Assembly (NCBI GenBank): GCA_951800365.1
Contig: CATOJW010000019.1
Span: 1 to 63,128 of the forward strand
Length of the DNA: 63,128 bases
DNA from: an uncultured Lachnospiraceae bacterium
GTDB lineage: Bacteria > Bacillota > Clostridia > Lachnospirales > Lachnospiraceae
Direction: 5' to 3'
The notes beneath the pieces were generated by a model. The model made no database searches, was not told the origin of the DNA, and saw nothing but the letters and a program-made list of their open reading frames with translations. The position numbers and the translations under genes were made by a program. Positions 1 through 58,756 of the stretch are shown piece after piece (position 1 is the first letter of the stretch; the number at the start of each line of letters is the position of its first letter).

Positions 1-160
1 GAGCGGTTTATGCATTATTTACAAAAACACAGTGAAAAGGTATCTTGTTTTTTTCAACATAGAAAGTTGAAATATATTCAAGACTACGGCTATTAAAACA
101 TTGACTTTTAATAGCCGTAGTAATATAATCAATCATAAGAAAAAATTTTTTTCGCTCGAA

Positions 161-3419: not shown

Positions 3420-3596
3420 ACTGTCTCCTTTTTCTTCTCATCATAAATCCACTTCATTTTCTCTCAGCTATCACAACATCATAACTCCCGTCCTCTAAAT
3501 CAAAATACTCCAAATATAAAAAACTTTCCCTAATCTAACAACACACAATCAAAAATCTGCACAAATCAGGTGCTAAAAAATTATGTCAATCAGGTA

Positions 3597-3763
3597 CACA
3601 CAGCCGAAAGCCAAATGGGGTTCTATGCAGGGTCATCATTTCCCGTCGGCACTTAAGCACTGTGTTGCTGTATTTTAGTGCCTTATGTGTCCGCTATGAA
3701 AATAGGAAATGCTAAGCGCAAGCGAGCCCGGAGCAGACCCCCTTTTGGATTTCAGCGTTTCCC
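3597..3763 (+). repeat. Type C structured repeat, copy C2
   Basis: Same family as 161-319; ends 4 bp downstream of the pepD stop. Confidence 0.8.
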
Positions 3764-3766
3764 TTA

Positions 3767-5248
3767 TCATAATTTTTCCAGTACCTCCACCAAATACTCC
3801 CAAACCCGTGCCACAGAAGAAATACTCAACCGCTCCCGTGTAGTATGAATATCCTTTATATCTGGTCCAAAAGAAATCGCATCCAGCCTTGGGCATTTCT
3901 CTAAAAGAATCCCACACTCCAACCCAGCATGAATTGCCTGTACCAACGGTTCTTTTTTATACTTTTCTCTATAAATCTCTACTGCCGTTTCCCGCAGTTT
4001 TGAATCCGCCCGATACTCCCAAGCCGGATACTCTCCACGTGTCGTATATTCTCCCCCTAAAAACTCTGTCATCGAACGAAGCTGATTGCTCAGTGCCTCT
4101 TTTCGGCTTCCTACACTGCTTCGAACTGAAGCCGTAACCGTAAGTTTCTCCTGATCCAGCAATACAATCCCAAGATTTAAAGAAGTTTCCACCAATCCCG
4201 GAATGATTCTGCTCCAATTCTGCACCCCATTCGGCAGATTTGCCAGCAGATAAACAACATTCTTCTGACAAGACAAGTCAATCCTCTTTTCTATCCTACT
4301 ATCCCTTTTTCTCCACTCTATCCTAAGATTCGGATCAGAACATGCATACTCTGCCTGATAAACCGCCATCCGCTCCTGTAAAAGCTGCTCAAACTGCCCA
4401 GCATCTTCTGCCTTTACCAACAAAGAAAACGCACACTCCGCCGCAATCGCATTATCTTTTTCTCCGCCCTGCAGTTTACAAATTCCATAGGAAATCTTTT
4501 GCTCTAACTCCAAAAGCAAACGTCCCGTTAATTTTATCGCATTAGCACGCTCCTTGTCAATCTCAGAACCAGAATGTCCTCCTGTTAGTCCCGTCACCTT
4601 TATCTGATATAAAATCCCCTCTTCTTCCAGATAACGAACCGGAATAACCATATCCCCTCTTAAACCTCCTGCACAACTTGTTAAAAAAACACCCTCTTCT
4701 TCGGAATCCAAATTAATCAGATACTGTCCCTTTAGCATCGATAAATCAATGCCCGCTGCTCCTAAAAGTCCAATCTCTTCATCCACCGTCAGCACCACTT
4801 CCAAATGCGGATGAGAAAGGCTGTCATCTTCTAAAACTGCCAGTGCATAAGCAACCGCAATTCCGTCATCTCCTCCAAGACTTGTACCCTCCGCATAAAT
4901 TTCATCTCCATCCACTTTTAAACGCAGAGCATCCTTCGAAAAATCAATATCACAATCCTCATCCTTTACTGTTACCATATCCAAATGCCCCTGCAGAATA
5001 ATTCCATCATCCTGCTCTCTTCCTTTTGAAGCCTCTTTCATCAAAATAATATTATTCCAACTATCCTGTATATAAGAAAGTCCATGCTCTTTTGCAAATG
5101 CAACACAATAATCACTAATCGCTTTGGTATTTCCCGAACCATGCGGGATTTTTGAAATTTCTTCAAAATAATAAAATACTCGTTCCGGTTTTAATAATTC
5201 CAACAAAACAATACCTCCTTCAAAACATACTATATGTAATATTGACAC
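3767..5248 (-). CDS. pepD: Aminoacyl-histidine dipeptidase (PepD, M20C family)
   Basis: ERVFYYFEEISKIPHGSGN N-terminus, GHLDMV metal-binding region, about 490 aa. Confidence 0.75.
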   Translation of the reverse strand: MSILHIVCFEGGIVLLELLKPERVFYYFEEISKIPHGSGNTKAISDYCVAFAKEHGLSYIQDSWNNIILMKEASKGREQDDGIILQGHLDMVTVKDEDCDIDFSKDALRLKVDGDEIYAEGTSLGGDDGIAVAYALAVLEDDSLSHPHLEVVLTVDEEIGLLGAAGIDLSMLKGQYLINLDSEEEGVFLTSCAGGLRGDMVIPVRYLEEEGILYQIKVTGLTGGHSGSEIDKERANAIKLTGRLLLELEQKISYGICKLQGGEKDNAIAAECAFSLLVKAEDAGQFEQLLQERMAVYQAEYACSDPNLRIEWRKRDSRIEKRIDLSCQKNVVYLLANLPNGVQNWSRIIPGLVETSLNLGIVLLDQEKLTVTASVRSSVGSRKEALSNQLRSMTEFLGGEYTTRGEYPAWEYRADSKLRETAVEIYREKYKKEPLVQAIHAGLECGILLEKCPRLDAISFGPDIKDIHTTRERLSISSVARVWEYLVEVLEKL

Positions 5249-8287: not shown

Positions 8288-10051
8288 ATGAAAAAACATA
8301 CGCTAGAAACCTACTGGACCAAACATATTACAGAAACAAATGTCTGGCAGGAATACCCCCGTCCTACTATGGTTCGCTCCTCTTATATCAATTTAAATGG
8401 CTATTGGGACTATACCATCAGCCGAAACGCCAAATTTCCCTCCGCCTATAAGGGAAAAATTTTAGTTCCATTTTCTCCTGAATCCCAATTATCAGGAGTA
8501 AAACGCCAATTAAAACCAAATGAATTTCTTTGGTATCACAGAACGATTTCTTTTTTACAACTCCAACCTACCGAACGACTCTATCTGCATTTTGGTGCAG
8601 TCGATCAATCCTGCACCGTTTATATCAATCAAAAAGAAGTCGGATCACACAGCGGAGGTTATCTCCCTTTTTCTATAAATATTACAGAAGCAGTTCAAGA
8701 CACCTTCCAATCTCAAGAGATCTGTGATCTCTTTGTTCGAGTTACCGATCCCAGCGATACCTCCTATCACAGCCGTGGAAAACAAAAACTGCATAACAGT
8801 GGTATGTTTTATACGGCACAAAGCGGTATCTGGCAGACGGTTTGGATGGAAATTGTACCGGATAATTTTATACGCTATATAAAATTCACTCCCAACTATG
8901 ATAAAAAAGAAATAACTGTCAAGATTTCTACTAAAGAAACTTGTCCTGCTTCCATCAAGCTGCTTCTTCCGTCCGGCACATGTTCTTACTCCATTACCAG
9001 CAATCAAAGCTTCCTGATTCCAATTAAAGAATTTTATCCATGGAGCCCGGAACATCCCTATCTATATCAAGTAACCATTACAACTGCCACCGATCAAGTA
9101 TCTAGTTACTTTGCTCTTCGAAAATGTGATATACAAACGGATTCTAATGGGATTCGGCGAATTTTTCTCAACAACCGTCCTTATCCTCAAGTCGGAATCC
9201 TCGATCAGGGATACTGGCCGGACGGTCTTTACACCCCGCCATGCGAAGAAGCCATGATCTTTGATATCCTTTCTGTAAAAAAACTAGGCTTTAATATGAT
9301 ACGAAAACATCTGAAAATCGAATCCGAACGCTGGTATTATACCTGTGATCGGCTTGGTATTTTAGTCTGGCAGGATATGGTAAACGGCGGAAGTCATTAT
9401 CATCACTGGTTTGTTACTTATATGGCAACCCTTTTTAACTATTCCGGCAAAAGAGTTTTCGATCACCCTCATGCACTGCTTTCACGTCAAAATAAAGAAG
9501 GCAGAAAAGAATGGGCAAAAGAAATGGTTTCCAGCATCCGCTTTCTCTCTTCCCACCCCTGCATTATATGCTGGGTTCCATTTAACGAAGGCTGGGGACA
9601 ATTTCGGGCACTCTTTGCAGCAGAACTGATTCGCAGTCTGGATCCAGAACGACTGATCGATCATGCCAGCGGCTGGTTCGATCAAGGCGGAGGAGATATC
9701 AAAAGTATTCACTACTACTTTTTCTCACTGATTCTCCACCCGGAAAGACGTGCACTTGCTCTGACTGAGTTTGGCGGCTACGCTTGGCATGTACCAAAAC
9801 ATAGCTATTCCTCAAAAACATTTGGCTACCGCACCTTTCCTAACCGAAAATCTTTGACAAACGGCTATCATAAATTAATGGAAACACTGATTTTTCCAGC
9901 ATTTCAAAACGGACTTTCCGCTTCCGTTTATACACAGCTTTCCGACGTAGAAGAAGAAATCAACGGAATCTTTACCTATGACAGAAAAATTTTAAAAATC
10001 GATGCTCAAACCCTGATTGAATGGAATCAAAAAATTCGAGGGGGACGCTGA
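8288..10051 (+). CDS. Glycoside hydrolase family 2 protein
   Basis: GH2 sugar-binding/catalytic-like motifs (WSPEHPYLYQV, NEGWGQF), 587 aa. Confidence 0.65.
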   Translation: MKKHTLETYWTKHITETNVWQEYPRPTMVRSSYINLNGYWDYTISRNAKFPSAYKGKILVPFSPESQLSGVKRQLKPNEFLWYHRTISFLQLQPTERLYLHFGAVDQSCTVYINQKEVGSHSGGYLPFSINITEAVQDTFQSQEICDLFVRVTDPSDTSYHSRGKQKLHNSGMFYTAQSGIWQTVWMEIVPDNFIRYIKFTPNYDKKEITVKISTKETCPASIKLLLPSGTCSYSITSNQSFLIPIKEFYPWSPEHPYLYQVTITTATDQVSSYFALRKCDIQTDSNGIRRIFLNNRPYPQVGILDQGYWPDGLYTPPCEEAMIFDILSVKKLGFNMIRKHLKIESERWYYTCDRLGILVWQDMVNGGSHYHHWFVTYMATLFNYSGKRVFDHPHALLSRQNKEGRKEWAKEMVSSIRFLSSHPCIICWVPFNEGWGQFRALFAAELIRSLDPERLIDHASGWFDQGGGDIKSIHYYFFSLILHPERRALALTEFGGYAWHVPKHSYSSKTFGYRTFPNRKSLTNGYHKLMETLIFPAFQNGLSASVYTQLSDVEEEINGIFTYDRKILKIDAQTLIEWNQKIRGGR

Positions 10052-10052
10052 A

Positions 10053-10195
10053 ATGGGAAGAAAGGTCTATTCCGGGTCCGCTCTCGCTTAGCATTTCCTC
10101 GTAGCGGACACTAAGGTGCTAAAATACAGCACCTAAGTGCCGACGGGAAATGATGACCCTGCATAGACCTTTCTTCCCATTTCAGCTGTTTCTAC
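10053..10195 (-). repeat. Type C structured repeat, copy C3 (variant arms gggaagaaaggtctat / atagacctttcttccc)
   Basis: Reverse-complement homolog of the type C core; starts 2 bp after the GH2 stop. Confidence 0.75.
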
Positions 10196-10434
10196 CAGCC
10201 AGAATTTTCACTTTTTTACTCATAGCAAGTAATCTCTGATTCCATTTCTGGCTCAAGACAAAATACCAACGAAACATGTCGGTTTTTTACAGCATATCCA
10301 CTTGGATTTCTTGCTTGAAAAGTTGTAGTATGTTGTACAACATCAATCACTGTCCGATTATACATCCTTCCTTTTCTCCCTTTCTTCCAATCCAAACAAC
10401 TTTTGAATCAAAAGATAGAAAAAAACTGCAACTT

Positions 10435-10870: not shown

Positions 10871-11033
10871 TTCTGCCAGAAATACACAGCCAAAATCCGA
10901 AGGAAGGTCTGCACAGGGTCATCATTTCCCGTCGGCACTTAGGCGCTGTGTTTTAGCGCCTTATGTGTCCGCTACGAGGAAATGCTAAGCGCAAGCGGAC
11001 CCGGAGCAGACCTTCCTTCGGATTTTAGCGTCC
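10871..11033 (+). repeat. Type C structured repeat, copy C4 (canonical)
   Basis: aaaatccgaaggaaggtctgc ... gcagaccttccttcggatttt arms; ggcgctgtgttttagcgcc hairpin; ends in TAGCGTCC. Confidence 0.85.
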
Positions 11034-11037
11034 TCTT

Positions 11038-11514
11038 CTATAGAATTACTTCCATTCCTATTTTTTGTGGCTTTAGACCACACGCTTCATAAAATTTTAT
11101 TGCCGATTCATTTAAACTCCATACATTTAAAGTTACATTATAACAGTAATTTTGTTTTGCAAATGCATAGACTGCCTGATATAGACTGCTGCCGATATGC
11201 TGTCCTCTTTGGTTTTCTTCTACACATAAATCATCAATATACAGTGTTTTAATATCAGTTAAAATATTATCGTTCTTATGCTGCTGAAAGATACAAAATG
11301 CATATCCTAAAATATTCTGATTCTCATCTGCTGCCACAAAAATTGGTCGCTGAGCATCACGGATAATCTCTTTTAACTGTTCATCTGTATATTTTTTTGC
11401 TCCATATCGGAATAAATCCGGTCTGCCTTTATGATGAACCAAACAAACCTGCATTAACAAACGATTAATTCCTTCCAAATCTCTTTCTTCTGCTCTTCTG
11501 ATTTCCATTATCAT
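11038..11514 (-). CDS. GNAT family N-acetyltransferase
   Basis: Acetyl-CoA binding motif region (QRGQHIGSSLY), 158 aa. Confidence 0.7.
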   Translation of the reverse strand: MIMEIRRAEERDLEGINRLLMQVCLVHHKGRPDLFRYGAKKYTDEQLKEIIRDAQRPIFVAADENQNILGYAFCIFQQHKNDNILTDIKTLYIDDLCVEENQRGQHIGSSLYQAVYAFAKQNYCYNVTLNVWSLNESAIKFYEACGLKPQKIGMEVIL

Positions 11515-17300: not shown

Positions 17301-17404
17301 TTCAGTTCCTCCTTCTTCTCACTTAGAAACATAAATTTGCCAAATTTTATTCTATTTTAACATACACAACAGTACCCCATTTTCTGGCGTCCTTCCTAAT
17401 TACA

Positions 17405-17545
17405 CACAAAAAATGCAGATACGCCAAAAAAGCATATCTGCATCCTATCTTTGCAAACTATGTCCCTACGTTGGCATTATCCAAATCAGGTTTTAAGGGT
17501 AAAAGCCTCACATGCTTACTCTCAGCCTATTCTAATAAGCTCCCC
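17405..17545 (-). promoter_or_regulatory. TPP (THI-box) riboswitch with intrinsic terminator expression platform upstream of thiMEDC
   Basis: The minus strand reads ggctgagag...acccttaaaacctgatttggataatgccaacgtaggga, which contains the CUGAGA motif and the pyrimidine-sensing helix. It is followed by a gcagatatgc/gcgtatctgc hairpin plus a T-run. Confidence 0.9.
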
Positions 17546-17595
17546 ATATCTTACATTATAACTATTTTATAACAAAAAACAACCCTTTTTTTACA

Positions 17596-37599: not shown

Positions 37600-38051
37600 C
37601 CGGACACCAAAGATAATTTGCTTTCACCGGACGCCAGAAGCGGGGGGCTCCTTTCCTCTGGCTGTTGATTAGCTCAAGGCAGAAAGATAAGATTTTTTTC
37701 GTTCCGGGGTCAGAAAACAGCCAGATTCGAAAACGGTGAACCGCCTGCAGTGACTTTGGAGAAAAGTTAGAAGTTCTTGACTTCTGCTCAAAAACCTAAG
37801 ATTTTTTTCACATACTGCTTTCATGCAGTGTGTGAAAAAAAAGGAGCGTGTTTAGCCCGCATATGTTTAAGGAAGCGATTGTTTTATGGCAGATAGAATC
37901 ATCTGAAACGCCAATTTCGTTCTGGCTGCCATGCGGGCGAATTGCGCTCCGGTCTGTCCGGTCAGAAAAATAGAACGGCAGAAGTCTAGAACTTCTTACT
38001 TTTTGGAAATCGGAACAGCAGGCGGTTCACCGTTTTCGAATCTAGCGTCCT
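37600..38051. repeat. Composite repeat: degenerate A arms, then linker, then full B element (arms ggtgaaccgcctg / caggcggttcacc)
   Basis: The B core hairpin variant cacatactgc..gcagtgtgtg has a compensatory change relative to cacatcctgc..gcagggtgtg. Confidence 0.85.
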
Positions 38052-43724: not shown

Positions 43725-44510
43725 TGATAGAGGACGTCAGATTCGAAAACGGTGGGCAGCCTGCTGTTCCGGTTTCCAAAAAGCAAGAAGTTCTAAGACT
43801 TCTGCCGTTTTATGCATCCAACCGGACAGACCGGGGCGCAATTCGCCCTCATTACAACCAAAACAAAACGGGTGTAAGGAAGGATTTTACCAACCATAAG
43901 ACGACTTCTTTCCTATCATCCGGGCTAAACACGCCCCTTTTTTTTCACACCCTGCATAGAAGCAGGATGTGAAAAAAATCTTAGGTTTTCGAGCAGAAGT
44001 CCAAGAACTTCTAACTTTTTTCCAAAGTCACTGCAGGCTGCCCACCATTTTCGAATCTGACTGTTTCTTGACTCCGAAACAAAAAAAGATACTCATCCAA
44101 GTTTTTCTTAAACCTATCCTGATGCAAAACTAACCAAAGTAATGAAATAGATTTCTGCCGCTATCCAACTAACAGCGAGAGGCGGTGGGCTCGTTTCCTT
44201 TGTCTGTGACTTCGGAGAACGGTTAGAAAGTCTTAGGCTTCTGCGGAAACACCTAGAATTTTTTGCATATCCTGCTTCCATGCAGGGTATGCAAAAAAAG
44301 GGGCGTGTTTAGCCCGGATAATAGGGAAGAGGATGTTTTATGGCTGATAAAATCTTTCCTTACACTCATTGTGTTTCGGCTTTAATGAGGGCGAATTGCG
44401 CCCCGGTTCGTCCGGTTAGATGCACATAGACAGAAGCCATAGACTTTCTTACCGTTTGGAGCGGAACAGACAAAGGAAACGAGCCCACCGCCTCTTGCGT
44501 CCGGTGACAT
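43725..44510. repeat. Composite repeat in reversed arrangement: B element (minus, 43725-44095), linker, A element (plus, 44180-44510)
   Basis: A arms gaggcggtgggctcgtttcctttgtct / agacaaaggaaacgagcccaccgcctc covary relative to other copies. The B arm contains a T·G-compatible pair. Confidence 0.9.
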
Positions 44511-47668: not shown

Positions 47669-47775
47669 AGGGGGACGCTGGAATTGAAAAGAAGATCTAT
47701 TTAGGATCTGCTTTCGCTTAGCATTTCTGATGACCCTTCATAGACCTTCTTTCCAATTCCAGCTATTTCTATCAG
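47669..47775 (-). repeat. Truncated type C repeat, copy C5 (arms only)
   Basis: gggggacgctggaattgaaaagaagatctat ... atagaccttctttccaattccagc; lies 33 bp downstream of the oxidoreductase stop. Confidence 0.65.
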
Positions 47776-47807
47776 CCTCAAATAATAACGTCCTTTCTGA
47801 AAAATAT

Positions 47808-49956: not shown

Positions 49957-50089
49957 CTAATCCATTCACCTCTCAATCCGATATAAAATAAAAACTTATT
50001 TTTTATTATAACATAAATCACCTTTATATTCTATACCTATCTTATTATACTTTAATTAAGCTTTTGGAGATAGGATGTTGCCGGAAAGG

Positions 50090-50465
50090 ATTGGATTTCA
50101 CCGGACGCAAGAGGCGGTTGAATAGCGGTAGAAATCATGTTTTATTACAGAGTAGATTTTTAGAAAAATTTAGATACAATTCTTTTTTTGTTTCGGCATC
50201 AAAAAACAGCCTGATTCGAAAACAATAGACAGCCTGCAGTGACTTTGAAAAAAAGTTAGAAGTTCTTGACTTCTGCTCGAAAGCCTAAGATTTTTTTCAC
50301 ATCCTGCTTCCATGCAGGGTGTGAAAAAAAAGGGTTGTGTTTAGCCCATGTAATAAAAAAGAGGTTGTCTTATGGTTGGTAAAATCTCCCCTTACACCAA
50401 CTTCGTTTCGACTGCAGTGAGGGCGAATTGCACCCCGGTCTGTCGGCTGTCTATTGTTTTCGAAT
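50090..50465. repeat. Composite repeat: A stub, then linker, then B element with shortened right arm
   Basis: B arms cgaaaacaatagacagcctg / ctgtctattgttttcg are a unique but complementary variant. Confidence 0.85.
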
Positions 50466-50612
50466 CTGGCGTCCTCTTAAATTCCAAAAGCCTAATCAAA
50501 GTTATTATTATTATAATTTTTCAAAAAATTTCCACTTTAAATTAAAAATTTAGTATTAAGTTTTTATTATAAATATTTACAACAAATTTCACCCCTGCTC
50601 TATTTTCCGGCA

Positions 50613-50782
50613 AAAATACACAGCCAAAATCCGAAGGAAGGTCTGCAAAGGGTCATCATTTCCCGTCAGCACTTAGGCACGGTCTTGCTGTGTTTTCGTG
50701 CCTTATGTGTCCGCTATGAAAATAGGAAATGCTAAGCCCAAACGGGCTCGGTGCAAACCTTCCTTCGGATTTTGGCGTCCCC
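50613..50782 (+). repeat. Type C structured repeat, copy C6
   Basis: Inner hairpin variant ggcacg..cgtgcc; ends 3 bp from the GerKA stop. Confidence 0.8.
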
Positions 50783-50784
50783 TA

Positions 50785-52212
50785 CTATTTATTTTCAGTT
50801 TTAGGCAAACTAATCCGTACAAATCGCCGCAAAAACTCCCGTCCATTAAAAGGGAAAAGAGGATAAAGATAACTTTTTCCAGAAAGTGTCCGATTCTGAC
50901 AAACGCAAAAAATCGTAAACAACACTCCAAAGATATACCCCCAAACATTAAATATCTGCGTAAGCAACAAAGTAATCAACCGCATAAATTTCAATGCAAA
51001 ACCCAATTCAAAGCTCGGCTGCGAATAATTTGCCAATACCACAAATGCCATATAAAGCATCGCTTCCGAATTAAACCATCCAGACTGCACAGCATAATCT
51101 CCCAGCACCAATCCGGCAATTACGCTTAAAGGAGTACTAAGCATATTCGGTGTATTTACTGCTGCAAGACGAAGCCCATCAATCGCAAATTCCAAAATAA
51201 TCAACTGCCAGATCAAAGGAACTTGTATCTCCTCAGCCGGAAAGATAAAAGCCAGCCATTCGGGAACCCACTCTGGATTCCTCATCAAAAGCAGCCACGT
51301 AGGCGTCAATATCCATGTCAACAGCGTAATCATAAACCGTGCCAATCGAAGATAAGTCCCAGTCACAGGAGGAAAATAATAATCATCCGCTTCTTCCAAA
51401 ATATCAAACACCGAACAAGGCAAAATCATAGCAGAAGGCGAATTATCCACCAAAATAGCAATTCCGCCCTCTAATATAGAAGCCGCTGCTGTATCCGGGC
51501 GTTCCGTATATTTATATTTCGGAAACGGATTCCACCACCCTCTTTTATAAAGACACTCTGCCAAACTCTCCTGATTCATTGTCAGTGCATCAATATCAAT
51601 CTCATTAATTCGCCGAATCAAGTCTTTTAAAAACTGCTGATCGACTCGATCTCTCATATAACAAACCGCAATATCCGTTTTTGAAGCACGCCCCACAGTA
51701 TACATCTCATTCGTAAGCTCTGTACTGCGAATCCGTCTGCGAATCAATGCCGTATTAAACACCACCGTTTCTACAAAACCGTCCCGAGACCCCCGCATTA
51801 CTCTGTCCTTTTCCGGTTCTTCTACTCCCCTTGCCGGATAATCCCTGCAATCAATTAAATAAGCCTCTGGATACCCTTCTATAAACATAGCTACCACACC
51901 AGAAAGCACATTTTTTACAATAGTATCCTCTTCTTTATTCATTTCCACTTGCAGATAAGACAAATATTTCTCAGAAAACTTATTTGCATCCTGCGGCATA
52001 TCCTCTTCCTTAATACTAACAAAAGAAGAAGTTATCTTCTGCATAATATCATCTTTCACAAAACCATTCAGAAAAAAATACGCCGCTTCCCGACCACCAA
52101 CCAAAAATTTCCAATACAATACATCAAAACTATCCTCTGTACGTAAAAGCTGCTTCATCCGCTCAAAGGTATTTTGAAAATCCGTTTGGTTTGTTCTATC
52201 CATTTTTCTCAC
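50785..52212 (-). CDS. Spore germination protein, GerA/GerKA family
   Basis: RVMRGSRDGFVETVVFNTALIRRRIR signature plus C-terminal multi-TM domain. Confidence 0.8.
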   Translation of the reverse strand: MRKMDRTNQTDFQNTFERMKQLLRTEDSFDVLYWKFLVGGREAAYFFLNGFVKDDIMQKITSSFVSIKEEDMPQDANKFSEKYLSYLQVEMNKEEDTIVKNVLSGVVAMFIEGYPEAYLIDCRDYPARGVEEPEKDRVMRGSRDGFVETVVFNTALIRRRIRSTELTNEMYTVGRASKTDIAVCYMRDRVDQQFLKDLIRRINEIDIDALTMNQESLAECLYKRGWWNPFPKYKYTERPDTAAASILEGGIAILVDNSPSAMILPCSVFDILEEADDYYFPPVTGTYLRLARFMITLLTWILTPTWLLLMRNPEWVPEWLAFIFPAEEIQVPLIWQLIILEFAIDGLRLAAVNTPNMLSTPLSVIAGLVLGDYAVQSGWFNSEAMLYMAFVVLANYSQPSFELGFALKFMRLITLLLTQIFNVWGYIFGVLFTIFCVCQNRTLSGKSYLYPLFPFNGREFLRRFVRISLPKTENK

Positions 52213-53070: not shown

Positions 53071-53274
53071 AATTAATTTTACCTCTCACCTTCCATTTTT
53101 TAAACTGCCACAAAAACAATTTTCCCGGATTCCCCTTCTATTTTTTGTTTAACAATTTCCCCGATCTCTCTTTCTTCCTCTTAATAGTTTATCACCAATT
53201 CCCGTTTTCCACAACCTTATTTTTACATTTTCCTTAATTAGGCTTTTAAAAATAGGTTGACGGAAAAGAAATTG

Positions 53275-54212
53275 CTTTCACCGGACGCAAGAGGCGGTTT
53301 GCTCCTTTTCTTTGCTTGCTCCGCTCTCCGAACGGTAAGAAAGTCTAAGGCTTCTGTATCTAAGCACATCCAACCGGACGAACCGGGGCGCAATTCGCCC
53401 TCACCACAGCCGAAACCCAACAAATGTAAGGAAAGATTTTATCAGCCATAAAACATTCCCTTCCCCATCATCCGGGCTAAACACGCCCCTTTTTTTGCAT
53501 ACCCTGCATGGAAGCAGGATATGCAAAAAATTCTAGGTGTTCCCACAGAAGCCAGACTTTCTAACCATTCTCCGAAGTCGCCGACAAAGAAAAGGAGCAA
53601 ACCGCCTCTCGCTGTTAATCGGATCACGGAAAAAATTATAAAAAATTATATTTTGTCACTTTATTCTATAAGTCAAAATTAATTTTATCTTCCAGTAAAA
53701 TAAGTACAAATTTTGCAGTAATCTTTTATTAGATGACAATAATTTTCCTGAATCATATAAAATAAAAGATTTCTAAATCCATATCCTTTCTCTGCTATAT
53801 TTAAAAATTTTTAAAACTCTTATGAAATACAAAAGTTTGGAATAAAATTCTTCTTTGTTTCGGAGTCAAGAAACAGCCAGATTCGAAAACCGTGAACCGC
53901 CTGCAGTGACTTTGGAGAAAAGTTAGAAGTTCTTGACTTCTGCTTAAAAACATAAGATTTTTTTCACATACTGCTTCCATGCAGTGTGTGAAAAAAAAGG
54001 AGCGTGTTTAGCTCGCATATGTTTTGGAAAGCGATTGTTTTGTGGCAGATAAAACCTTTTGGTATATCAATTTCGTTTTGGCTGCCATGCGAGCGAATTG
54101 CGCTCCGGTCTGTCCGGTTGGATGTAGCCTCAATGCAGAAGTCTTAGAACTTCTTACTTTTTGGAAACGTGGAACAGCAGGCGGTTCACGGTTTTCGAAT
54201 CTGGCGTCCCCC
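53275..54212. repeat. Composite repeat: A element (minus, 53275-53612), expanded 250-bp AT-rich linker, B element (plus, 53862-54212)
   Basis: A arms gctccttttctttg / caaagaaaaggagc are a variant. B arms aaaaccgtgaaccgcctg / caggcggttcacggtttt. Confidence 0.85.
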
Positions 54213-54225
54213 TCCCCCAAAAATT

Positions 54226-55737
54226 TTAAACCCCTATATCACTATCTGCCTCAAACCAAAATTCTACCCCATTTTCCAAATTCCGCACCCCATACTCCTT
54301 ATGATGTGCCTCCATAATTGCCTTTACAATCGAAAGCCCTATCCCGCTCCCTCCATATTCTCTTGTCCTTGCCTTATCCACCTTATAAAATTTAATCCAC
54401 ACTTTATCCAAATCCTCTTCTGGAATCCGATTCCCCGTATTAAAAACACAAACCCGCACCGTATGCTCATTTTTTACCAAAGAAACCACTATCTTTTTTT
54501 CATTTGCTGCATAATGAATGGCATTACTGATATAATTCGTAATCACTTCCTCTATCTGATACTCATCTCCCCATACAAAAACTGGCTCTTTCTGCTTTAA
54601 TTCCACCGTAATCTGATTCTGCCGACACAAAATCTCAACTGACTGTATTACTCCGGCAAGCAAAGCCGTTATATCAAATCGCTCCATTGCAATCTGATCC
54701 TGTCCAAACTCAAGCTGATTTAAAGTCAAAAGTTTTTTTACCATCTTATTCATCTTATTTGCTTCATCCATAATCACTTCACAATAAAACTCCCTGCTCT
54801 GTGCATCCTCATTAATCTCCTCCGCAAGTCCCTCTGCATACCCTTGAATCAATGCAATCGGTGTCTTTAATTCATGTGACACATTTGATAAAAATTCCTT
54901 CCGCATTTCATCTACCTGAATCTTTTGTTCTATATCTTTTTGAAGCTCATTATTTGCCGATTTTAGCTCGGAAATCGTACTCTCCAATTTCTTAGAAAGT
55001 TCATTCATACTCTGTCCAAGAACCCCAATCTCATCCTTATCATGCCTCTCATACTTTGCCTCAAAATCCAAATTAGACATTTTACGGGATAACTCTGCCA
55101 ATTCCATCAAAGGCTGAACCAAACGCCGAGTCATCGCTGTAGAAATCAAAATCGCAAGCACACTTACCACTACTCCCACATATGCCACAAAACGATTTGA
55201 AATATCTACACTTTCCCGAATACTCTCCAAAGGAATCCGAAGTAGCATATATTCCCGCATATTCGGCTCTACCCCATAAAGTTCCAAAAAAGCAGTAGAA
55301 AACCGATTATCTTCATTCCGAAAAATACTATAATTCTCCTCCTGCTTCAAAGTAACTGCATTATTATCAATCCCAAACAAATAAGGCATAACCAAATCCT
55401 GCAGTGTCTGTGCCTTATTTACATTATAATAAATCGGCTTTAACACCCCCGTATTCGCATCCAAAATAATATAAGTAATATTTGACTTTTGACACAGCCC
55501 CTCCAATTCCAGCGCCACCTCATCCGTCCTTTTATTACTCTGCACCAATTCACACATACTAAAATACACATTCTCCAACTTTGTCTGCTTACTAATCAAA
55601 TAATACCCCTCCAAAAACCGATTATTAATAAACAAAAGCAAACAAATTGTCCCAGTTGTCGCAAACAAAAGCAGCACAATAATCTTCATCCGAATCGAGT
55701 GCTGCGTCCTCTCTGCAATTTCCCTTATTCTCTTCAT
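54226..55737 (-). CDS. Sensor histidine kinase (TM-HAMP-HisKA-HATPase)
   Basis: SNVSHELKTPIALIQGY H-box; N, G1 and G2 boxes (GGSGIGLSIV). Confidence 0.85.
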   Translation of the reverse strand: MKRIREIAERTQHSIRMKIIVLLLFATTGTICLLLFINNRFLEGYYLISKQTKLENVYFSMCELVQSNKRTDEVALELEGLCQKSNITYIILDANTGVLKPIYYNVNKAQTLQDLVMPYLFGIDNNAVTLKQEENYSIFRNEDNRFSTAFLELYGVEPNMREYMLLRIPLESIRESVDISNRFVAYVGVVVSVLAILISTAMTRRLVQPLMELAELSRKMSNLDFEAKYERHDKDEIGVLGQSMNELSKKLESTISELKSANNELQKDIEQKIQVDEMRKEFLSNVSHELKTPIALIQGYAEGLAEEINEDAQSREFYCEVIMDEANKMNKMVKKLLTLNQLEFGQDQIAMERFDITALLAGVIQSVEILCRQNQITVELKQKEPVFVWGDEYQIEEVITNYISNAIHYAANEKKIVVSLVKNEHTVRVCVFNTGNRIPEEDLDKVWIKFYKVDKARTREYGGSGIGLSIVKAIMEAHHKEYGVRNLENGVEFWFEADSDIGV

Positions 55738-55829
55738 TCCTTCACCTTATATCCTTCTTTAAACACAAAAAGACAAAAAAACACTTATTAACCATCACCC
55801 TTTCCCACTTTTGAAGATAGGATAGTGGC

Positions 55830-56290
55830 TTTCACCGGATGCGAAAAGCGGTTTGCTCCTCGCTGTTGGTTAAATAGCAGTAGAAATAATATTTTATTAC
55901 AGAACAAATTTTCCGCAAAATTTGGATCCCATTCTTTTTTTATTCCGGTGTCAAAAAACAGCCAGATTCGAAAACGGTAGGCAGCCTGCAGTAACTTTGG
56001 AAAAAAGTTAGAAGTTCTTAGACTTCTGCTCGAAAACCTAAGATTTTTTTCACATCCTGCTTCCATGCAGGGTGTGAAAAAAAAGGGGTGTGTTTAGCCC
56101 GGATAATAGGGAAGAAGATGTTTTACGACTGGTAACATCCTTCTTTACACCAATTCCGCTTCGGCTGAAAGGAGGGCGAATTGCACCCCGGTCTGTCTGG
56201 TTGGGTGCACAAAGATACAGAAGTCTTAGAACTTCTTACTTTTTGGAAACCGGAACAGCAGGCTGCCTACCGTTTTCGAATCTGGCGTCC
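55830..56290. repeat. Composite repeat (A stub, linker, full B) inserted between the response-regulator and histidine-kinase genes
   Basis: B arms ggtaggcagcctg / caggctgcctacc; fills the 578-bp RR-HK spacer. Confidence 0.85.
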
Positions 56291-56315
56291 CCCTTCGAAC
56301 TTCTAGTATCCCACT

Positions 56316-56990
56316 TCACACCTCAAATTTATACCCCATCCCCCAAATCGTCTTAATATACTCCCCCTTCTCCCCCATCTTACTCCGAAGTTTCTTTACA
56401 TGTGTATCTATCGTCCGGGCATCCCCAAAATAATCATAATTCCAAACATGATTCAAAATCTTCTCCCGTGATAAAGCCAGCCCCTGATTCTCAATAAAAT
56501 AAGTAAGCAGCTCAAACTCCTTAAAACTTAACTCCACATCTTCTCCATCAATCGTAACCTTATGAGCTGCCTTATCTAAACAAATCCCCCCTACCTCAAT
56601 TACCTCATCCATATTCAGTTTATTTGCCCGCCGCAAAATCGCTTCCACTCTAGCCACTAAAATCTTTGGACTAAACGGCTTTGAAATATATTCATCCACC
56701 CCCAGTTCAAATCCCAGCAGTTCGTCCCGTTCATCTCCCTTTGCCGTCAGCATAATAATCGGCACTTTTGAATATTTCCGAACTTCCCGGCAGACCTGCC
56801 AGCCATCCATTTTTGGCATCATTACATCCAAAATCAACAAAGCAATTTCCTTTTCCTGAAAAAAAATATCAATCGCTTCTTCTCCGTTTTCTGCCTCTAA
56901 TACCTCAAAATTCTTTTTTACCAAAAAATCCCGCACCAATTTTCTCATTCTGCTTTCATCATCAATTACCAGAACTTTTAATTTATCCAT
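56316..56990 (-). CDS. OmpR-family response regulator
   Basis: Receiver domain (VLVIDDE...D...K) plus winged-helix domain (WGMGYKF). Confidence 0.9.
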   Translation of the reverse strand: MDKLKVLVIDDESRMRKLVRDFLVKKNFEVLEAENGEEAIDIFFQEKEIALLILDVMMPKMDGWQVCREVRKYSKVPIIMLTAKGDERDELLGFELGVDEYISKPFSPKILVARVEAILRRANKLNMDEVIEVGGICLDKAAHKVTIDGEDVELSFKEFELLTYFIENQGLALSREKILNHVWNYDYFGDARTIDTHVKKLRSKMGEKGEYIKTIWGMGYKFEV

Positions 56991-58657: not shown

Positions 58658-58731
58658 ATCGAGGTGACGTGATTCGAACACGCGACTTCTACGTCCCGAA
58701 CGTAGCGCTCTACCAAACTGAGCCACACCTC
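58658..58731 (-). tRNA. tRNA-Pro (anticodon CGG)
   Basis: CGAGGTGTGGCTCAGTTTGGTAGAGCGCTACGTTCGGGACGTAGAAGTCGCGTGTTCGAATCACGTCACCTCGA forms a canonical cloverleaf with G37. Confidence 0.85.
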
Positions 58732-58756
58732 GAACATAACACGGCTACGTTTCACC

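Follow-up and report, generated by a model that had tools for sequence, protein, structure and literature searches.

A palindromic repeat element between the response regulator and histidine kinase genes of a Lachnospiraceae two-component operon and its probable effect on the transcript

The two-component locus and its spacer

The window (the whole stretch of 63,128 nt analysed here, from an uncultured Lachnospiraceae bacterium) carries an OmpR-family response regulator (RR) gene and a sensor histidine kinase (HK) gene, which lie in the same orientation and are separated by a 578-bp spacer, as the earlier note had described (Table 1). The note had also recognised an A stub, a linker, and a B element in this spacer, an anatomy that was borne out by self-comparison of the window and alignment of the window copies. 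The same 578-bp spacer was present, identical, in four independent metagenome assemblies (L004, L006, L007, and L009) and is therefore not an assembly artefact; identical copies of the HK protein were found in 10 metagenome contigs. On both strands, the spacer folds far beyond shuffled sequences (z = -10.3 on the - strand and -11.6 on the + strand; 0/100 shuffles as good). At the gathering score, Rfam returned a tmRNA, a TPP riboswitch, and two tRNAs across the whole window and nothing in the repeat, and at E <= 10, the best E-value in the spacer was 0.13, with a top score of 21.8 bits vs. a gathering score of 86.

Table 1. Coordinates of the RR-HK locus, its repeat copy, and other features of the window (strand given where it applies).
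Feature	Position	Strand	Basis or remark
RR gene, OmpR-family response regulator, 224 a.a	56316..56990	-	ORF; Pfam Response_reg 4e-28, Trans_reg_C 1.4e-26
RR stop codon	56316-56318	-	ORF
RR-HK spacer, 578 bp	55738..56315		Gap between two co-oriented ORFs
HK gene, sensor histidine kinase, 503 a.a	54226..55737	-	ORF; Pfam HAMP, HisKA, HATPase_c
HK ATG	55737-55735	-	AAGGTGAAGGA precedes ATG
A stub, outer end of A unit, CTTTTGAAGATAGGATAGTGGCTTTCACCGGATGCGAAAAGCGGTTTGCTCCT	55808..55860	+	Family D14; 87% identity to 33466-33518, start of full A unit
AT-rich linker between A and B	55861..55952		Alignment; contains conserved ..TTTTATTAC..
U-rich tail UGUUUUUU, directly 3' of B hairpin on operon sense strand	55953..55960	-	Fold and alignment
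B unit, complete 326-nt rod-like hairpin (predicted)	55961..56286		MFE and centroid structures
Central hairpin T7-CACATCCTGC-TTCCAT-GCAGGGTGTG-A8, conserved T.G wobble	56044..56084		Family D4, 12 copies; helix 3 of covariation set
Conserved outer-end motif GGGGGACGCCAGA, begins 22 nt past RR stop codon	56281..56294	-	Alignment; motif count
Segment absent in sister strain L001, B hairpin and tail, 337 bp	55944..56280		Alignment
Reference full composite: A 33466-33862, linker, B 33882-34266	33466..34266	+	Self-comparison, alignment
Full composite, opposite orientation	43725..44480	-	Self-comparison, alignment
Full A, long linker, and B composite, directly downstream of HK stop	53254..54220	+	Self-comparison, alignment
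Near-empty remnant GGACGCCAGA|AAATGGGG..CTGTTGT, just after TPP riboswitch terminator	17383-17392	-	Sequence
Collapsed composite GGGGGGACGCCAGAACAGAAAAAGTATCTCCAAAAGCCTAATTAA, B outer end joined to A outer end	~23900-23956	-	Sequence
Copies of a second repeat family	10038-10204 (+), 10871-11041, 3585-3768, 50605-50788, 150-326, ~47673-47780		
tmRNA	58756-59116	-	Rfam
Two tRNAs	58659-58732, 34455-34537	-	Rfam
TPP riboswitch	17446-17556	-	Rfam

Read along the operon sense (-) strand, the RR stop codon is followed by 22 nt, the outer-end motif GGGGGACGCCAGA, the 326-nt hairpin of the B unit, and then UGUUUUUUG (55960-55952); in this sense-strand form of B, GGACGCC precedes the hairpin. In the predicted fold, the basal stem pairs 55961-55989 with 56258-56286 as 29 perfect base pairs, from which more helices lead to a branched tip. 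The B unit matches window positions 33830-34264 with 85% identity over 436 nt (E = 3e-141) and positions 43732-44105, on the other strand, with 87% identity. By alignment, the A unit of this copy has been reduced to its outer 53 nt, the A hairpin itself being deleted. Two direct repeats accompany the element. The linker sequence TCCGGTGTC (55944-55952) is an imperfect direct repeat of TCTGGCGTC (56281-56289), and an 8-bp perfect direct repeat, AAGTGGGA (- strand; 55800-55807 and 56310-56317), flanks the whole element from the A stub to B. The latter is probably due to chance, given that a family-wide test lent target-site duplications no support: the best direct repeats in the flanks of 27 composites had the same length distribution as those in mismatched flank pairs.

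Elsewhere in the window, positions 20230-20757 hold a tandem array of six 66-bp repeats (identity of 69-93% in 198-nt frames) inside an ORF of 1086 a.a (20177..23437, - strand), which would therefore encode a 22-residue repeat protein; a similar repeat also occurs in L100. Nearly every gene in the window, the RNA genes included, lies on the - strand.

A family of paired hairpin units

The repeat in the RR-HK spacer recurs at ~10 other intergenic sites in a self-comparison of the 63-kb window, about a tenth of which is covered by the family. In the full element, as aligned, the A unit opens with CTTTTGGAGATAGGAT..GGCTTTCACCGGACGCCAGAGG, an AT-rich linker containing ..TTTTATTAC.. follows, and the B unit closes with ..CGAATCTGGCGTCC. 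Units are ~330 nt and composites ~800 nt in size. A and B have a common 254-nt core in opposite orientations, and each unit is laid out as GGACGCC, a long stem, a conserved branched tip, a long stem, and GC-TGTTTYTT. The outer ends of A and B carry a common GGACGCCAGA in inverted orientation, and the end motif GGACGCYRRR has 22 matches in the window vs. 0.67 expected. At the tip, the motifs GGGGCGTGTTTAGCCC and GGGCGAATTGCGCCCCGGTCTGTCCGG hardly vary among units. The tmRNA gene has a long-linker composite (59315-60314) ~200 nt away from its 5' end.

Sampling of ~0.9 Mb of DNA yielded 200 cores, nearly all from one Lachnospiraceae MAG. These included 50 adjacent A/B pairs, all of them divergent (50/50) with gaps of 103-671 nt, while close convergent or tandem unit pairs were not seen among the 200 cores. 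The core pattern, searched against one genome per species, matched more than 116 8-kb blocks; among the matches listed, nearly all blocks belonged to one 'uncultured Lachnospiraceae' MAG, CBFFYP01, with one block in another Lachnospiraceae MAG and one at a contig end binned as Erysipelotrichaceae. Three CBFFYP01 contigs start with 78-79 nt identical to window positions 47-125, which makes this organism, or one very closely related to it, the probable source of the window. Viral contigs gave 0 matches to the repeat core, and a phage origin of the repeat was rejected. A small protein encoded within the unit was also considered and rejected, as in most copies the recurrent ORF (MEAGCEKNL...) has no ATG, is frameshifted, or is truncated. 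Judged from its sequence, the family is non-coding. We found no description of a repeat like the A/B family in the searched literature on Lachnospiraceae and Clostridia, nor is there one in Rfam 15; to our knowledge, REP-like repeats are little described in Clostridia.

Alignment of 83 B units gave clear evidence of selection for base pairing. Across 70 proposed pairs, 99.2% of cells were standard pairs vs. 92.5% with shuffled partners (0/500 as high), and sliding the partners by 1-3 columns lowered the standard pairs to 43-50%. Changes on both sides were seen at 36 pairs vs. 17 in shuffles (24/29 in the basal helix), and the A units showed the same covariation behaviour. The high pairing together with the both-side changes therefore indicates that pairing as such is maintained.

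The basal stems of both A and B show a further asymmetry, with G.T pairs outnumbering A.C pairs ~2:1 on the linker-outward ('core') strand, which hints at a strand-specific single-stranded form, either RNA or DNA. As this excess runs opposite to the terminator-like reading, the better-pairing strand of the RR-HK B copy is antisense to the operon. One could picture the unit as an independent structured RNA gene, in which a ~330-nt rod RNA would be transcribed outward from the linker, here as a B RNA antisense and convergent to RR. The outward orientation of the G.T excess in both A and B and the near invariance of tip motifs such as GGGCGAATTGCGCCCCGGTCTGTCCGG speak for such a gene; however, we consider it very unlikely, given that there is no conserved linker promoter, no outer-end terminator, and no Rfam match, and that a single-stranded DNA intermediate would give the same asymmetry.

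An autonomous element between A and B was not found. Two A-B pairs lie >1 kb apart and enclose ordinary housekeeping genes, and the hypothesis of an autonomous element was rejected. A tblastn search of the ~1 Mb of sampled DNA with approximate IS200 TnpA and YafM query sequences revealed a lone Y1 transposase, an IS200/IS605 TnpA of 134 a.a (L097 1103-1507, CBFFYP010000119.1; NF033573, E = 8e-38), and these queries turned up no repeat-flanked RAYT gene in the part of the genome that this DNA covers. The TnpA gene has no units upstream and a B unit only past the next gene, an esterase-like gene whose start it overlaps by 4 nt and whose stop abuts that B unit.

Hairpins of the family have been lost repeatedly. 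The A-hairpin deletions are independent and have different end points (50074-50126, 37600-37652, and the spacer stub at 55808-55860), and in addition to A stubs with these three deletion end points, the window holds a near-empty site and a collapsed composite (Table 1). Of the solo B units, 20 are turned towards a stop codon and 13 towards a start codon; with the orientation of units to genes thus mixed, the placement of the family overall is not that of a dedicated terminator.

The window also contains a second repeat family of ~165-190 nt (Table 1), which follows the same plan as B, with GGGGACGC, a covarying hairpin, and a GCTGTKT tail. Its copies often begin at or inside a stop codon (e.g., the TGA of ORF 8288..10051 lies within the motif), and dozens of copies occur in CBFFYP01 blocks.

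A derived insertion with natural alleles

The earlier note had reasoned that the RR and HK genes would normally overlap or abut, and homologous loci agree with this expectation. A related species (L131; 95% identity in RR and 83% in HK) provides a syntenic ortholog in which the gene order HPr, DUF6465, hypothetical, RR, HK, and 240-a.a gene is kept, and here the RR-HK spacer is 41 bp and lacks the element. Spacers estimated for 67 homologous RR-HK pairs of other species range from -39 to +150 nt, and all 67 loci lack the repeat. Given the 41-bp spacer of the syntenic ortholog and the range in these pairs, the comparison identifies the RR-HK insertion as derived. Directly past its HK stop, L131 carries a shorter (~260 nt) homolog of the B unit (4520-4795), colinear and in the same orientation as window positions 53851-54220. 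Since this homolog is positional, the repeat family would be older than the split between the two species, or the post-HK site would be a hot spot.

Orthologs of HK with 63-86% identity (L127-L130, L133, and L134) are not always beside RR. A DUF697 gene precedes HK in one species, a RidA-like gene does so in another, and in L134 an MCP-signal gene lies between RR and HK (~1.46 kb). Within the clade, the RR-HK junction has undergone repeated rearrangement.

The natural experiment that the note had foreseen does exist. A sister strain, L001, with ~99.5% identity in the flanking genes, has a 241-bp RR-HK spacer without the B hairpin. The junction, GACGCCAGA|ATAAAAAAAG, lies at an imperfect 9-bp direct repeat (GACGCCAGA/GACACCGGA), and the retained outer motif, linker, and A stub indicate that the L001 allele arose by deletion from a window-type allele. 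The two alleles differ at seven nucleotides in HK and three in RR, and all 10/10 differences are synonymous third-position changes, which shows that both genes are under purifying selection and that HK, although it lies downstream of the element, remains functional. An allele with an empty RR-HK site was not found in a collection of metagenome contigs in which the only RR relatives have <=83% identity and belong to other species.

Repeats of this family do break and mis-join assemblies, and several contigs switch genes at repeat ends, raising the prospect that the spacer or the L001 deletion is itself a mis-assembly at a repeat. We consider this extremely improbable, because the 578-bp spacer recurs unchanged in the four independent assemblies, the 9-bp imperfect repeat at the L001 junction is too short to mislead an assembler, and the L001 contig has 69x coverage and comes from a strain that has scattered SNPs besides. 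The contigs in question, which pass into unrelated genes precisely where a repeat ends (e.g., window 56293/56294), are the metagenome contigs L002, L003, L008, L137-L140, L147, and L148 of this species, and are either repeat-induced chimeric assemblies or products of real recombination between copies; L148 also carries an IS66-type transposase gene after QueH. At four more repeat loci, we found no strain polymorphism, just breaks and mis-joins at repeats.

Predicted effects on the transcript and known relatives

Of the ways in which the earlier note had supposed the element to act, an internal promoter supplied by the linker found no support. Under a 9-of-12 sigma-70 rule, no sigma-70-like site was present in the spacer or in full composites, and over 142 units promoter-like sites were no commoner than in shuffles and held no fixed position. 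A promoter donated by the linker or the A stub, from which HK would be transcribed independently of RR, is therefore quite unlikely, although the linker is AT-rich, weak -10-like hexamers can be picked out by eye on the - strand (TATTAT at ~55885), and Correia-type repeats are known to create promoters (PMC2649163).

The note's other proposal, that the long stem serves as a terminator or processing site, has support in silico. The 29-bp stem of the sense strand closes at 55961 and is followed by UGUUUUUUG, but a consensus scanner found 0 compact terminators in the spacer. At least five T occur in the 8 nt after the stem in 79/82 B units (consensus TGTTTCTTGA), and the tail of the RR-HK copy has one of the best T runs in the family. 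The commonest family tail, UGUUUCUU, is interrupted and weaker than a classical U-run, and the opposite strand of the B unit has no U-rich tail. The central T7-stem-A8 hairpin was considered as a (bidirectional) terminator and rejected: on both strands its T-run lies 5' and its A-run 3', so that the U-run would come before the stem and termination is precluded either way, and the scanner called no terminator there.

Taken together, the sense-strand hairpin with its conserved U tail, and the lack of a compact terminator or promoter, favour partial termination or processing. With moderate confidence, we interpret the spacer as a partly decayed palindromic repeat of REP/BIME- or MITE-like character, which probably causes attenuation or processing of the operon transcript at the junction of the two genes. 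In this lineage, a copy of the high-copy, non-coding composite repeat was inserted between RR and HK; it has lost its A hairpin but kept B whole. The sense transcript would then form the 326-nt hairpin, with its 29-bp perfect basal stem, followed by UGUUUUUUG. Hairpin and tail may bring about leaky intrinsic termination and/or serve in dsRNA processing and 3' stabilisation, such that RR message would build up over HK message and HK would be made by read-through. From the predicted fold and from known analogues, we infer that the sense-strand hairpin and U tail affect expression, and how the element spreads is likewise something we infer. Against termination as such stands the predicted 'loop' of ~270 structured nt, which is not that of a canonical terminator. 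The mixed orientation of units across the family, the weaker tail of most copies, and the antisense position of the better-pairing strand in this copy also speak against it.

It is possible, though on the unlikely side, that the element is a neutral passenger, i.e., selfish or junk DNA that is read through with no meaningful effect on RR:HK, the L001 deletion being ordinary palindrome instability. The roughly random orientation of units to genes, the repeated loss of hairpins through deletions with varied end points, the purifying selection that still acts on HK, and the fact that the tail of most copies is not a strong U-run are all in keeping with such a passenger. Nevertheless, RNA polymerase, RNase III, or 3' exonucleases are unlikely to overlook a 29-bp perfect stem in a hairpin of ~-200 kcal/mol with U6 directly after it, and known analogues do change expression (PMC2649163).

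In function and architecture, the closest known systems to the attenuating or processing repeat that we favour are the REP/BIME/REPIN elements and the Correia/ERIC-type repeats. Like the REP, BIME, and REPIN elements of E. coli and Pseudomonas, the A/B family consists of high-copy, non-coding extragenic hairpins in which a conserved linear motif stands 5' to a palindrome with compensatory changes in its arms. Its two subtypes are inverted around a linker, as are the Y and Z REPs in BIMEs and the REP doublets in REPINs; its copies are often found immediately past stop codons, and there is no detected target-site duplication, again as in REP/BIME. An intercistronic REP copy is also known to skew operon expression. 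In malEFG, such a copy reportedly stabilises the upstream malE mRNA and lowers downstream expression (Newbury et al. 1987), and BIMEs are reported to attenuate transcription (Espeli et al. 2001). The differences lie chiefly in size, with A/B units of ~330 nt compared with ~20-40 nt for a REP and ~70-110 nt for a REPIN, and the pair resembles a BIME or REPIN at about ten times the size. Furthermore, the host is a Firmicute, the A/B units possess a branched tip and a U-rich tail, both of them conserved, and no RAYT flanked by the repeat was found in the ~1 Mb, the Y1 transposase of L097 being an ordinary IS200-type enzyme.

The family is also comparable to the abundant intergenic inverted-repeat elements of the MITE-like type, including Correia (Neisseria), ERIC/IRU, BOX, and RUP. 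Correia-type repeats are described (PMC2649163) as co-transcribed with their neighbours, with hairpins that can be RNase substrates and are bound and cleaved by RNase III, and with altered expression of adjacent genes. Correia elements are 100-155 bp in length, with 26-bp terminal inverted repeats and a TA duplication, whereas the A/B element comprises paired long rods of ~800 bp in total and, unlike Correia, has no detectable target-site duplication and shows no promoter signal. Its outer ends share GGACGCCAGA in inverted orientation, and no autonomous IS partner was found; the 27 composites differ from a classical MITE in having no detectable target-site duplication. The likeness to an intrinsic terminator is that one strand has a stable GC-closed stem followed by 6-7 U in 8, here just 3' of a stop codon; unlike in such a terminator, the 'loop' is ~270 structured nt, units face starts about as often as stops, and the tail is interrupted (UGUUUCUU) in most copies. 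Finally, like the palindrome-associated elements derived from IS200/IS605 (PATEs), the family lacks classical terminal inverted repeats and a duplication, and its hairpins are strand-asymmetric. CBFFYP01 does encode an IS200/IS605 TnpA, but a link of this TnpA to the repeat ends was not found, and the A/B hairpins are far longer than the subterminal palindromes of IS200/IS605.

A wider and rather doubtful reading would make the A/B rods undescribed, giant REPIN-like replicators in Clostridia that spread via a strand-specific single-stranded intermediate and that the host has co-opted as modular, direction-specific transcription insulators, with the RR-HK copy as a recent re-wiring of the operon. 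The 2:1 asymmetry of G.T over A.C and the nearly invariant tip hairpins, which could be protein-binding sites, point in this direction. As an insulator, a composite would present a hairpin and U tail to transcription arriving from the B side, and a hairpin with a weaker, U-poor tail to transcription from the A side.

Two-component signalling hinges on the RR:HK ratio, which a structured repeat placed between RR and HK could change in a single step. The insertion at this locus is an ordinary type of event, made useful by its paired alleles: since the hairpin is present in one and missing from another of two nearly identical strains, the effect of the hairpin is directly measurable. The family itself is unusually large in its elements (~330-nt rods and ~800-nt composites), unusually dense, and clearly structured, and its repeats visibly break and mis-join metagenome assemblies of the source organism. 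As such, the A/B family would be well suited to studying the spread of such repeats and their possible recruitment by hosts for termination or insulation.
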